From a virus (taxonomy: Duplodnaviria > Caudoviricetes): 64,000 bases of DNA. Where the stretch lies: positions 256,001 to 320,000 of IMG/VR virus record IMGVR_UViG_3300011989_000257; one strand, given 5' to 3'. Below are positions 20,263 to 55,353 of the stretch, in pieces (the stretch's first letter is position 1; each line of letters starts with the position of its first letter). Position numbers and translations under genes: made by a program. The notes under the pieces were generated by a model. The model searched no databases, was not told the DNA's origin, and saw nothing but the letters and a program-made list of their open reading frames with translations.

Positions 20263-20568
20263 TGGACCTGGTGGGATTCGAACCCACGTCCAAACTACCA
20301 TCCCATAAGAGATTATACAAGCTTAAAAATTGGGGGATGACTGAATCAACCCTCTCCACCACCTCATTTTGAGAAAACGAGGAAAACAAAGTTACTAGGA
20401 TGTTCTGTTCCTAAGAGCCTAGTCTCTCGGCTCACGCTTAGGCTGCGATAGCCATTGCATAAGCAGGAGAATCGATGTTCTCGCCGTTTATATTTTTTCG
20501 CTATTTCTAGTGTATGCCCACTGCTTGTCTCTTACCAAATGCATAGCTGTCTATTCCATTTCAAGCCC
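20263..20568 (-). ncRNA. ssrA: tmRNA
   Basis: 5' GGGCTTG pairs with 3' CAGGTCC-A (G3:U), T arm; tag frame 20485-20438 reads GENIDSPAYAMAIAA-stop. Confidence 0.92.
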
Positions 20569-33294: not shown

Positions 33295-33898
33295 TGATGG
33301 GGGTGGGATTCGAACCCACGACCTGAAGCTTCATACCACTCTATGTTACCATAGCCAACAAACGATGTTTTTAAACAGCTTATTACACAGCCTCCGCTTA
33401 CTGAGACGTTTGTTGTTGTAGTCTGGAATACATTTTTACCACATTGAAATTCTTGCAAGATACCAATCAGATTCCTATTCCAAGATGTGTTTTCTACTAA
33501 GTACACGGCATTGATAAATTTCAACTTAGGCATTCTTATCAGATGCATCTGAATAGAATGTGAGGGTATTCAATATATTTCCCTCATAACTCCTATATAC
33601 TCTCTACACGTTTATGAGCCTGTGACATTCCAACCTGAATATTACACGAGGTATTCACAGTATTTCATCTTACTCAATTTAGCACGGTATTATCCTCACA
33701 CATTATTGGTTAGTGCCGAGATAAAGTCGCAGACTCGAACCTTGGTCTTCACTATAAGTGACGTGTTTCCTATTACACCAAAATTATCTCGTACAAGGAT
33801 TTCCACCGTTTTAGGGAGTTTCTACTATGGGATTTCTCGCCATAGCATCCAATTTATTTATAGAAGGCTCCTGCTCTGTCCAACTGAGCTACCCCACC
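33295..33898 (-). tRNA. tRNA-Arg(TCT) split by intron (exons 33898-33862 and 33331-33295)
   Basis: Joined halves give GGAGC-CTTCTAA-GCTTC with acceptor GGTGGGG/CCCCATC. Confidence 0.85.
33332..33861 (-). mobile_element. group I intron (~530 nt, no ORF)
   Basis: Follows exon U, ends in G; core-like segments AAACGGTGGAA, ATAATACCGTGCTAA, GTAGAGAGTATA; P3-like CTCCCTA/TAGGAG. Confidence 0.75.
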
Positions 33899-34748: not shown

Positions 34749-35309
34749 TTATTCATTTAATTTTCTTAGACGTTGAATGATTTTTCTAGTTATACCAAAA
34801 TGTTTGGCAACTTTTTCCCAAGATTTCAACTCATTATATTTTTCTACTAATTCATTGTATGATGGATATTTTTCATTTATTTCAGCTTCTCTGCACTCTT
34901 TAGAACAATAAAGTTTACCAGCTACATAATCAAATTCCTTTCCACAGTGCTTACATATCGCTTTTCTTTTTATGCTAGAAAATACTGAGGAATGCTTTGA
35001 CTGCATTTCTTCAATTAAATTATCTATGTTATCTTTATCAAACTGAGGGTTGTGTAACTCTCTATGACAATTTGAACATACAATAATACATTTATCAAGT
35101 TCCTCAAGAATTTTTCCTTTGGTTGTATTCGATAAGTGCCTTGAGTCTAACTGAAAACTCTTAATGCTAGGGTCTAAATGGTGAAATTCTAATGCTGCAA
35201 TATTTTTATCATATCCACACCTTTCACATTTCCCCCCTTTTAATCTGATAATTTCTAATTTCCTACTTAATGCTCTTTCTTTTTGTTTCAAATAATCATT
35301 TGGATTCAT
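34749..35309 (-). CDS. HNH homing endonuclease
   Basis: CERCGY...LEFHHLDP...CIIVCSNCHRELH. Confidence 0.88.
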   Translation of the reverse strand: MNPNDYLKQKERALSRKLEIIRLKGGKCERCGYDKNIAALEFHHLDPSIKSFQLDSRHLSNTTKGKILEELDKCIIVCSNCHRELHNPQFDKDNIDNLIEEMQSKHSSVFSSIKRKAICKHCGKEFDYVAGKLYCSKECREAEINEKYPSYNELVEKYNELKSWEKVAKHFGITRKIIQRLRKLNE

Positions 35310-35666: not shown

Positions 35667-35689
35667 ATTGTTAGTTTTTAGTTTGATAG

Positions 35690-35803
35690 AGCCGTGTGCT
35701 GGATTCGAACCAACGTTTGTACTTAAACACCCCTTGTGCATATGCTGGTACCTATTGGGGTCGCCTCGTTTGCGCTGTGCTGACCGTCTTACACTAACAC
35801 GGC
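35690..35803 (-). ncRNA. tRNA-Thr-like body with ~45 nt structured insertion in anticodon arm
   Basis: GCCGTGT/ACACGGC acceptor, D and T arms intact. Confidence 0.6.
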
Positions 35804-54063: not shown

Positions 54064-55353
54064 CTATTTAACACAAATCATCGTATAGTCTTTCTTTCCT
54101 TTAGTTAGAAGTAGATACTTACCATTGATGAGATATTTATCAGAAATTATTTCTTTTTCAACAGTGGTTTTAATCTTGTTGATTGAGAAACCATTACTCT
54201 TTATGAGTTTTCTTGCTTCAGACTTTGAAGGTACTTTGTCGTGCATTGCTGCAAGGTCAATTGCTGTAATACCACTGTCAAACGTATCTTTACTAATCTC
54301 CACAGTAGGAACACCGTTCATCGCAGCAAGAAACGTATTCTCATCGAGTTTTTCCATATCAGCCATAGTTCCCTTACCGAAAAGGATATTTGTGGCTTCC
54401 ATAGCCTTATTGTATTCCTCCTCAGAATGCACAAGACATGTCATATACTTAGCCAATTCTTTCTGCAAATAACGAGAACTAGGATTCTCACGATGTTTTT
54501 CAATCATGGCATTAATTTCATCAAGAGGAATAAGAGTAAATTTCTTGATAAACACTTCTGCATCTACATCAGAAACATTAAGCCAATACTGCATGAACTG
54601 ATAAGGGGAAGTCTTTTTTGGGTCAAGCCATACTGAGTTTCCTTCAGTTTTGCCAAACTTACGACCATCTGCACAAGTAATCAAGTCCCAAGTCAAACCA
54701 CACACATCATCTTTACCAAGCATCTTATGAACGAGGTCTTGACCAGTTACCATATTCCCTAGGTTATCAGTTCCAGCAATTTGAAGAGTACAACCATAAT
54801 TCTGATACAAATGAACGAAATCGTAACCTTGAAGTAAACCATAGCTGAACTCTTGGAAGCTAATACCATTCCCTTCTCTCTCAAGGCGTTTTCTTACATT
54901 TTCCTTTGCCATGAGATAGTTAACAGTAATCTTCTTACCGACATCACGTATGAAATCAAGGAACTTGTAATCCTTATACCAATCCCAATTGTTAACCATA
55001 ATGGCTGCATTTGGTGCATCTGAATCGAAATCAATAATCTTTGAAATTTGTTTCTTAACGCATTCTACATTATGGAATACAGTTTCCATTGAAATGGCTT
55101 TACGCTCCTCACTCTTTCCGCTTGGGTCTCCAATAGCGCAAGTAGCACCTCCAACCAATATGATGGGTTTATGACCATATTGCTGCATAAGTCTCGATAC
55201 CATAAGTCCGACCATATGGTGGATGCCAAGAGAATCAGATGTTGGGTCAAGACCTAGATAAAAGGTTGTTGGTTTACTAAAACACTCTTCTAGATTACCA
55301 AATGTCTGAGACCATAGTCCCCTTTCTTTAAGTTCTTTAATTAATGGATTCAT
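54064..55353 (-). CDS. tyrS: tyrosyl-tRNA synthetase
   Basis: YLGLDPTSDSL, IGDPSGK, LLQGYDF, KFGKT, C-terminal S4 domain. Confidence 0.95.
   Translation of the reverse strand: MNPLIKELKERGLWSQTFGNLEECFSKPTTFYLGLDPTSDSLGIHHMVGLMVSRLMQQYGHKPIILVGGATCAIGDPSGKSEERKAISMETVFHNVECVKKQISKIIDFDSDAPNAAIMVNNWDWYKDYKFLDFIRDVGKKITVNYLMAKENVRKRLEREGNGISFQEFSYGLLQGYDFVHLYQNYGCTLQIAGTDNLGNMVTGQDLVHKMLGKDDVCGLTWDLITCADGRKFGKTEGNSVWLDPKKTSPYQFMQYWLNVSDVDAEVFIKKFTLIPLDEINAMIEKHRENPSSRYLQKELAKYMTCLVHSEEEYNKAMEATNILFGKGTMADMEKLDENTFLAAMNGVPTVEISKDTFDSGITAIDLAAMHDKVPSKSEARKLIKSNGFSINKIKTTVEKEIISDKYLINGKYLLLTKGKKDYTMICVK

Follow-up and report, generated by a model that had tools for sequence, protein, structure and literature searches.

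Which kind of element interrupts a tRNA-Arg(UCU) gene in the genome of a large phage, and how is a tRNA-shaped module inside this element to be understood? The gene is located in a stretch of 64,000 nucleotides (the window), which represents bases 256001-320000 of the 412,514-bp IMG/VR virus record IMGVR_UViG_3300011989_000257 (34.5% G+C). About 40 tRNA genes and a transfer-messenger RNA (tmRNA) gene are arrayed on the minus strand of the window. The results described below led us to conclude with high confidence that the insert represents a self-splicing-type (group I) intron, which belongs to the lineage of bacterial tRNA introns (Azoarcus-like, IC3-type) and interrupts the anticodon loop in the single tRNA-Arg(UCU) gene of the phage.

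The split gene is composed of the following parts:

33862-33898, minus strand: 5' exon of tRNA-Arg(UCU), 37 nt, GGUGGGGUAGCUCAGUUGGACAGAGCAGGAGCCUUCU, with the 5' strand of the acceptor stem, the D arm, the 5' strand of the anticodon stem, and C32 and U33

33864-33862, minus strand: anticodon U34 C35 U36, which forms the end of the 5' exon and the exon strand of P1

33861-33332, minus strand: insert of 530 nt (intron), which begins directly after U36 and has G33332 (omega-G) as its final base

33331-33295, minus strand: 3' exon, AAGCUUCAGGUCGUGGGUUCGAAUCCCACCCCCAUCA, with A37 and A38, the 3' strand of the anticodon stem, the variable loop, the T arm, the 3' strand of the acceptor stem, and the discriminator A

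The gene at 33898-33295 was overlooked by ARAGORN with default settings and by Rfam. Once introns were permitted, ARAGORN called it as tRNA-Arg(tct) i(38,530). Joining of the exons in silico yielded a 74-mer that folds into a clean cloverleaf of tRNA-Arg(tct), and the predicted spliced anticodon arm is found as one unbroken string in tRNA-Arg(UCU) genes that have no insert on other phage contigs. The junction is ambiguous by one base, i.e., it could be placed after U36 or after A37, and a U at the last exon position together with an omega-G is obtained in the U36|...G register only. This ambiguity had prompted the consideration of an archaeal-type bulge-helix-bulge intron at position 37/38, which was ruled out by the group I core. 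The insert contains no credible open reading frame (ORF): none of the ORFs inside it had a family match, irrespective of whether genetic code 11 or TAG = Q was used, and no homing endonuclease ORF was found. The tRNA-Arg(UCU) gene is the sole gene of its type in the 412-kb phage genome, and AGA is the most frequent Arg codon (17.7 per 1000, about half of the Arg codons in 180 long ORFs), which argues that the split gene is in use.

A comparison of the locus with deposited phages by blastn gave no match. When exact strings of the core were used instead, about 20 homologous inserts were found in viral (IMG/VR) contigs, and homologous inserts were present on at least 120 metagenome contigs. The host tRNA genes were assigned by intron-aware ARAGORN, which revealed that members of the family interrupt the genes for tRNA-Arg-UCU, Ser-UGA, Leu-UAA, and Met/Ile-CAU at the following sites (locus labels designate the individual copies):

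Arg-UCU, after U36: the window copy, L038, L066, L113, and a decayed copy in L006

Arg-UCU, after U34: L035

Met/Ile2-CAU, after U36: L020 and L024

Ser-UGA, after U34: L021, L043, and L083

Leu-UAA, after U34: L044, L116, and L057

In every intact copy, the conserved UGCUAUGG block is immediately preceded, on its 5' side, by three nucleotides that are wobble-complementary to the final three of the exon. In the window copy this internal guide is the following:

33850-33848, minus strand: internal guide GGA, which pairs with the exon sequence UCU (G·U36, G-C35, A-U34)

The guide tracks the exon in about 15 copies and in three contexts, namely GGA/UCU, GAG/CUU, and GUG/CAU, and the U at the splice site is opposite a G (G·U) in all intact copies. 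The second context is also represented by L095, in which GAG is opposite an exon ending with CUU and of which the 3' part was not recovered. As the guide follows the exon across three different targets, chance is excluded, and the pattern reads as the P1/internal-guide rule of group I introns. It appears that the family changes its target by altering the 3-nt guide. In addition, all 12 intact tRNA-hosted relatives have a terminal G, like G33332 in the window copy.

The secondary structure was analyzed with an alignment of 13 tRNA-hosted copies (A1), for which the helices P2, P3, P4, P5, P5b, P6, P7, P8, P9, P9a, and P9b were specified. The fold that was tested comprised 69 pairs in 12 helices, with P3 crossing P7 as a pseudoknot, and 500 shuffles as well as slid 3' partners served as controls. 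Standard pairs were present in 95.0% of the 892 cells, compared with 87.3% in the shuffles and 36-45% with slid partners. Changes on both sides were seen in 25 of the 69 pairs (13.3 in the shuffles, at most 9 with slid partners), and none of the 500 shuffles reached any of the measures of the fold. Most of the swaps were borne by P2, P4, P5b, P6, P7, P9, and P9a. P8 was invariant in the alignment, and it is thus uninformative with respect to covariation. Taken together, the core helices P3 to P9 are present in canonical order, including the P3/P7 pseudoknot, and they are kept by compensatory changes. In the window copy the elements are located as follows:

33823-33847, minus strand: P2 hairpin, UGCUAUGG/CCAUAGUA, eight pairs, three with double changes, 100% paired

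33815-33820, minus strand: P3 5' strand AACUCC, partner GGAGUU at 33593-33588

33804-33809, minus strand: P4 5' strand ACGGUG, partner UACCGU at 33689-33684, with an A-U/U-A swap in 6 of the 13 copies

33795-33800, minus strand: P5 5' strand AUCCUU, partner GAGGAU at 33697-33692

33717-33791, minus strand: P5a, the nested tRNA-shaped module

33698-33716, minus strand: P5b, a small conserved hairpin, GCAC-UAACCAAUAAU-GUGU, with double changes in three of its four pairs

33615-33676, minus strand: P6, UGAG/CUCA, with a variable extension

33596-33614, minus strand: J6/7, UAAACGUGUAGA, and P7 5' strand GAGUAUA, the partner of which is UGUAUUC at 33432-33426 (three pairs doubly changed)

33531-33586, minus strand: two additional hairpins between P3' and P8, which are common to L116, L007, and L008 only

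33439-33530, minus strand: P8, CCUAAG...UGUGG, a tetraloop-receptor-type motif, plus a stem of 8 bp that does not vary, UUGAAAUU/AAUUUCAA, and an extension that does

33336-33421, minus strand: three-way P9 domain with P9 (CUAC/GUGG), P9a (CAACAAACG/CGUUUGUUG plus an extension), and P9b (CUAUG-GUAA-CAUAG, a GNRA loop)

The A-U pair that compensates in P3 (AACUCC/GGAGUU) is unique to the window copy among the aligned copies, and it may be taken as a sign of ongoing selection on the fold. P9 has a C-G/U-A swap in five copies, and in P9a all nine pairs show double changes. An alternative pairing of UGUAG in J6/7 with CUACA after P7' had been considered and was dropped, since the covariation partner of CUAC/CCAC is GUAG/GUGG close to the 3' end, in P9. 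The outermost pair of P7 is G-C in 12 of the 13 copies and the next pair is A-U in 11 of the 13; a pair of P7 would bind the guanosine.

The first-pass annotation of this DNA had proposed a group I intron in tRNA-Arg(UCU), on the basis of an insert of about 530 nt that starts right after the anticodon base U36 and ends with a G, and of segments resembling a group I core. All of this was corroborated: the borders of the insert agree with the exons, the ARAGORN intron call, and the cloverleaf; the core-like segments are now backed by covariation in the 13-copy alignment; and the intron itself is supported by the covariation of guide and exon, the U·G pair at the splice site, the omega-G, the covarying fold from P1 to P9, and the homology of the family to known introns.

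With respect to this homology, the core resembled that of the Azoarcus tRNA-Ile intron. A 21-mer of the latter is present in more than 120 bacterial genomes, within tRNA(CAU) genes that bear inserts of 202-255 nt, and RF00028 of Rfam scores these bacterial tRNA-Ile2(CAU) inserts as group I with 50.5-64.5 bits. A covariance model (R1) was built from 36 bacterial tRNA-Ile2(CAU) introns only, without any phage sequence, and the loci of the phage family were searched with default filters. Five loci were matched: L095 with 41.0 bits (E 2.5e-11), L066 with 34.1 bits (E 3.9e-9), L024 with 29.2 bits (E 1.3e-7), L116 with 24.4 bits (E 4.5e-6), and L044 with 23.5 bits (E 8.6e-6). L066 is a tRNA-Arg-UCU gene that is interrupted at the same site as the window copy. 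The R1 alignments to the family span P1, P2, P3, P4, P6, J6/7-P7, P3', and P8, and the J6/7-P7 region aligns with the bacterial sequence GUGUAGAGACUA. The detection of family members by R1 indicates that the phage family forms one branch within the lineage of bacterial tRNA introns. In every block of the core, the window copy can be aligned with the members that R1 detected (A1), and its proposed membership rests on this family alignment, not on a strong direct score. A T4 td-like (IA2) subgroup, which had first been considered in view of shared strings, was abandoned for the Azoarcus-type lineage after the bacterial model had matched.

From the anatomy, the homology, and the covariation, a splicing pathway for the window copy can be inferred. 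By homology, the guide GGA (33850-33848) and the anticodon U34 C35 U36 would form a P1 of three base pairs with a U36·G wobble. An external guanosine, which would be held in P7, would attack after U36, the terminal G33332 would next occupy the guanosine site, and ligation of the exons would yield a tRNA of 74 nt with the anticodon loop CUUCUAA. The predicted core consists of P3-P4-P6 and P7-P3'-P8, and it would be braced by peripheral elements, i.e., by a GAAA-type L2 loop together with the receptor-type motif CCUAAG/UGUGG of P8, by the GUAA loop of P9b, and by the long extensions of P5, P6, P8, and P9. The loop of P2, CGAGAAAUC, is able to close as a GAAA tetraloop, so that L2, the P8 motif, and the P9b loop are all present as motifs. 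As in IC3-type bacterial tRNA introns, L2 might dock in the P8 receptor and the L9 loop in P5; P5 is devoid of an 11-nt receptor. The tRNA-shaped module would form the P5a arm of the three-way junction in the P5 extension.

At a conserved phage locus, the intron has truncated relatives, which were found in L001:12572-12985 (+) and also in L007, L008, L247, L005, and L002. The end of an ORF is followed by a structured leader of about 100 nt, by a core from P2 to P8 with P7', and then, within 4-6 nt, by a tRNA-like gene with an oversized anticodon loop. In the truncated relatives, the guide slot lacks a G and the P9 domain is absent, and exons were not definable for the L001-type elements. P3, P4, P6, P7, and P8 are retained, with compensatory versions of their own. 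They could be either domesticated ribozymes or relics. L001 and L002 bear the same tRNA-shaped P5a module as the window copy.

Several observations weigh against the assignment as a group I intron. RF00028 had no match on the locus up to E 10, nor near the locus in the genome; it was likewise silent on L001 and L002, and the whole window was devoid of Rfam group I matches at gathering as well as permissive thresholds. The direct match of R1 to the window copy was weak, even when the filters were switched off and both strands were searched (top match in the window at 33869-33794 on the minus strand, 11 bits, E 0.027), and it covered only P1 and P2. The score is low because the remainder of the alignment is disrupted by the long outer arms. 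No significance was reached in the window by short nhmmer profiles made from segments of the bacterial core; for the J6/7-P7 profile the correct site was the top match in the window, yet with an E value of 0.86. Furthermore, P1 has only three standard pairs, and the 3' half of the P8 receptor is UGUGG (33439-33443) in the window copy and UAUGG in 12 of the 13 aligned sequences, a variant that may weaken the presumed contact of L2 and P8. Lastly, decay occurs within the family, since at least one relative lacks a guide and is apparently dead. This is L006:1216-1731 (+), an insert in another tRNA-Arg(UCU) gene, in which the guide is mutated to AAA and P9b is broken. Excision at the G would leave an anticodon loop of 8 nt, and L006 is probably a dead intron within a tRNA pseudogene.

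The UGUGG variant, the fate of L006, and the existence of truncated relatives could be accommodated by a different view, namely that the insert is a group I intron by descent but that this copy has lost splicing. In that case the phage would have only a pseudogene for tRNA-Arg(UCU), and the decoding of AGA would fall to a tRNA of the host. This is improbable, because all core helices of the window copy are intact, including the compensated P3 pair that occurs in no other aligned copy, and because the guide, the U preceding the splice site, and the omega-G have all been preserved. In addition, the exons form a perfect cloverleaf, and the phage has no second tRNA-Arg(UCU) gene for its commonest Arg codon.

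The most conspicuous part of this predicted group I intron is the tRNA-shaped module. It sits between the two strands of P4, which are the segments that had earlier been labelled P and Q, and is part of the P5 extension, a three-way junction in which the 75-nt module adjoins the conserved P5b hairpin. The module (33791-33717) contains a CGAGAUAA/UUAUCUCG stem, the hairpins GUGU-AAUAGGAA-ACAC and UCAC-UUAUA-GUGA, and a T-loop-like sequence, GGUUCGAGUC. Its minimum free energy fold is a four-way junction, in which an outer stem of 8 bp meets a D-like hairpin (the loop of which contains GG), a second, short hairpin, and a T-like arm that is weak. Folded alone, it has -18.6 kcal/mol, and the z-score is only -1.94. 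It stays below the threshold for tRNAs (19.9 bits versus the Rfam RF00005 cut-off of 29), and it was not called by ARAGORN. The T stem has standard pairs at three of five positions and never varies, the "anticodon" loop UUAUA has 5 nt instead of 7 (9 nt in L339), and the module is internal to the intron and thus has no free acceptor (3') end.

The content of the P5a slot, to which 33794-33717 corresponds in the window, is hypervariable within the family. The 100 distinct slots that were listed for copies on viral and metagenome contigs held about 60 contents that are unrelated to each other and measure 25-247 nt, which shows that the ribozyme does not need the module. The tRNA-shaped content is the commonest single type, with 6 of the 100 distinct slots listed. 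Between the window and L001 the module is identical at 75/75 positions, and 74/76 positions are identical to L002. The adjacent P2-P5 core is less alike, with 53/56 positions for L001 and 49/56 for L002. Six distinct variants of the module are known among the copies examined. In two diverged variants (94% and 88%) the outer stem is kept via a C-G to U-A swap and the D-like stem via a wobble, the T-loop UUCGA(G/A)U and the anticodon-like stem are kept, and the anticodon-like loop alone varies, in length. The module was never found outside of the P5a slot, neither in viral contigs nor in metagenome matches nor in the phage's own genome. Some other P5a modules recur elsewhere, e.g., the module of L306 is also present in the 5' leader of the L002 element. 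In 13 whole introns, seven T-arm hairpins were found versus 1.3 expected. Strict T-arm hairpins numbered two in the 100 P5a slots versus 1.6 expected, and therefore a general enrichment of T-arm hairpins in the periphery is not firmly claimed. The uniformity of the module is owed either to constraint or to recent exchange.

These results led us to infer that the module is an interchangeable outer arm, a structural brace or a passenger, which lies outside of the catalytic machinery and is constrained in its lineage. Most likely, it descends from a tRNA sequence, and as a tRNA it looks degenerate in spite of its good conservation. The first-pass annotation had described it as a tRNA mimic used as a peripheral domain, and this description holds for the position and in part for the shape (the junction, the outer stem, the GG, and the T-loop); the tRNA score, the T stem, and the 5-nt loop do not agree with it.

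Three more specific roles or origins of the module can be weighed against this assignment as an exchangeable arm. If it were a working tRNA mimic, it might recruit a tRNA-binding folding helper, such as RNase P, a synthetase, or a modification enzyme that binds T arms, or it might be a decoy for host tRNA-targeting factors that is displayed by, or released from, the excised intron. Its better conservation than that of the neighbouring catalytic core, its rank as the most frequent single P5a content, and the retention of the D-like GG, the T-loop, and the stems in the variants all point in this direction, and tRNA introns that hold tRNA-like pieces, albeit of another kind, have been reported for megaphages (PMC6784885). 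However, unrelated contents occupy the same slot in the relatives, the score and the silence of ARAGORN do not indicate a tRNA, the T stem, the deviating anticodon-like loop, and the enclosed 3' end fit poorly, the P5a slots show no excess of strict T-arm hairpins, and recent exchange between copies can explain the high identity. A working mimic is thus regarded as unlikely, and the same applies to the helpers and decoys named above. Still less can be said for an invasion of the intron by a small mobile cassette of the tRNA type, of which the module would be the scar. The module is indeed bracketed by an inverted repeat of 8 bp, namely its outer stem, and P5a modules of the family do recur in other slots. 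Yet in the viral contigs, the metagenome matches, and the phage's own genome this module has been seen nowhere but in the P5a slot of the intron family, never as a free-standing unit, the surrounding intron core is intact, and the module is not a complete tRNA, which makes such an origin very unlikely.

The third proposal concerns a tyrosyl-tRNA synthetase (TyrRS), the gene of which is located in the same window:

54064-55353, minus strand: phage TyrRS, 429 aa, bacterial-type (TIGR00234, 329 bits)

By analogy with the mitochondrial TyrRS CYT-18 of Neurospora, the phage enzyme had been suggested to aid splicing, i.e., it would assist folding by binding the module or P4-P6. The closest solved structures are bacterial TyrRSs, with up to 421 bits. 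Residues 10-324 of the phage enzyme align with residues 42-385 of CYT-18 (1y42/2rkj), and, judged from the alignment ranges alone, the phage protein lacks the N-terminal segment of CYT-18, and its core is shorter by about 29 residues. The binding of introns by CYT-18 depends on fungal-specific additions. The module has no features of a tyrosine tRNA: a GUA anticodon, a long variable arm, and a free acceptor end are all missing. In addition, relatives of the intron with other P5a contents were found in many contigs. The suggestion was therefore not upheld: the phage TyrRS is an ordinary bacterial-type enzyme, and a role of it as a splicing helper is extremely unlikely in spite of the presence of its gene in the window.

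Some further features of the tRNA array and of the genome were recorded. Two other tRNA genes have short inserts in the anticodon loop, namely tRNA-Asn-GUU (51 nt; 17738-17862, minus strand) and tRNA-Leu-AAG (34 nt; 35689-35803, minus strand). These inserts are much too small for a ribozyme and belong to the size class of the "enigmatic" introns of Lak megaphages, and they represent a phenomenon that is separate from the group I intron. A tRNA with the anticodon CUA (15506-15597, minus strand), which was called "Pyl" by ARAGORN, is likely to be an amber suppressor, and in some of the phage's genes TAG may be decoded as sense. The tmRNA is encoded at 20260-20568 on the minus strand (Rfam, 73.7 bits), and its tag peptide is GENIDSPAYAMAIAA. 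A free-standing ORF of 186 aa (34749-35309, minus strand), which is located inside the tRNA array some 850 nt upstream of the split gene, has paired CxxC motifs and an HH motif and looks, by eye, like an HNH endonuclease; it is possible that its product helps ORF-less introns to spread. Outside of the window, in the same genome, a weak Rfam group I match was found at G000:C1:46843-47045 (-), with 17.7 bits and E 0.0075, which may represent another, unrelated group I intron.

The family is abundant in large phages, as indicated by the numbers of viral and metagenome contigs given above. Its members have more than twice the size of their bacterial relatives without having gained an ORF, and they are missed by tRNA finders as well as by Rfam. 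The tRNA counts of large phages are thus too low, and in the present case the sole tRNA for the commonest Arg codon was overlooked. With its variable periphery, the family offers natural swap experiments on the outer domains of a small ribozyme, and it raises the question of what conserved RNA modules, including the tRNA-shaped one, do in the intron. A rather speculative answer, to which we would give only a slim chance, is that the outer arms, chiefly the P5a slot, are cargo bays and that the intron is kept also as a vehicle, not solely as a selfish element. Small structured RNAs, including tRNA mimics like 33791-33717, would then be expressed together with the tRNA cluster, and after splicing they would decoy or bait those host factors that are directed at tRNAs in defence or processing. 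In this view, the truncated L001-type relatives near tRNA-like genes would be domesticated ribozymes of the same tool kit.

The comparison with known systems begins with the outer arm. In the Tetrahymena intron, P5abc is an outer domain that grows from P5 and lies outside of the catalytic core. P5a of the phage family can be likened to it as a functional analogy: neither sequence nor shape is related, the phage P5a is interchangeable between copies, and it may act as a brace.

With respect to phages, a literature search of incomplete coverage found no explicit account of group I introns in phage tRNA genes and none of the present family. Devoto et al. 2019 (PMC6784885) described "enigmatic" tRNA introns in Lak megaphages, one of which was predicted to encode a tRNA. 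Like the phage studied here, these are large gut or rumen phages with many tRNA genes, and inserts in their anticodon loops hold tRNA-like pieces (a T arm and an acceptor-like stem). The Lak introns were ruled out as members of the same family, because they are about 75-140 nt long and devoid of a group I core (PMC6784885, supplement file 4). The sole phage tRNA introns that were found in that literature are thus short, unclassified, and of another kind. Group I introns are also carried by phage T4 (td, nrdB, sunY) and by Jug and crAss-like gut phages, and the papers on the latter two (PMC12880540, PMC7886860) report many group I introns in protein genes, while tRNA genes are unmentioned. All of these introns reside in protein genes, often together with homing endonucleases, whereas the window intron resides in a tRNA gene, has no ORF, and would belong to the bacterial tRNA-intron lineage.

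The classical bacterial group I introns that reside in genes for tRNAs are Leu.3Ug, Arg.5Ug, fMet.2Ug, and Ile2.5Ug, all of which are IC3 introns (Williams 2020, bioRxiv 10.1101/2020.01.27.920355). The cyanobacterial and plastid tRNA-Leu(UAA) intron (Leu.3Ug) shares the U34/A35 site and the guide GAG with the phage copies L044, L116, and L057. The window copy is present in a different tRNA and at a different site, and the phage introns are about twice as large. The Agrobacterium-type tRNA-Arg(CCU) intron (Arg.5Ug) is likewise found in an Arg tRNA, where it follows position 36; the splice site is preceded by a U, and the intron ends with a G. The anticodon is CCU versus UCU in the phage, and the phage host, the size, and the outer domains differ.

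The closest parallel is the Azoarcus-type tRNA-Ile2(CAU) intron (Ile2.5Ug; IC3, Williams 2020), which also follows directly after position 36 and has a 3-bp P1 with the anticodon and a U·G pair. Its guide GUG is also used by the members of the phage family that reside in CAU tRNAs, and a GAAA-type L2, the P8 motif CCUAAG...UAUGG, the terminal G, and the core strings AAAUUCGGUG, CCGAGC, and GUGUAGAGACU are common to both. In contrast to the Azoarcus-type intron of about 200-220 nt, the phage intron has 530 nt and contains a three-way P5 extension (P5a and P5b), two extra hairpins before P8, a three-way P9 domain, and long extensions of P6 and P8. It has no 11-nt receptor in P5 and is not detected by RF00028. 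Furthermore, it is AT-rich, it is borne by a phage, and its host gene is a tRNA-Arg(UCU).

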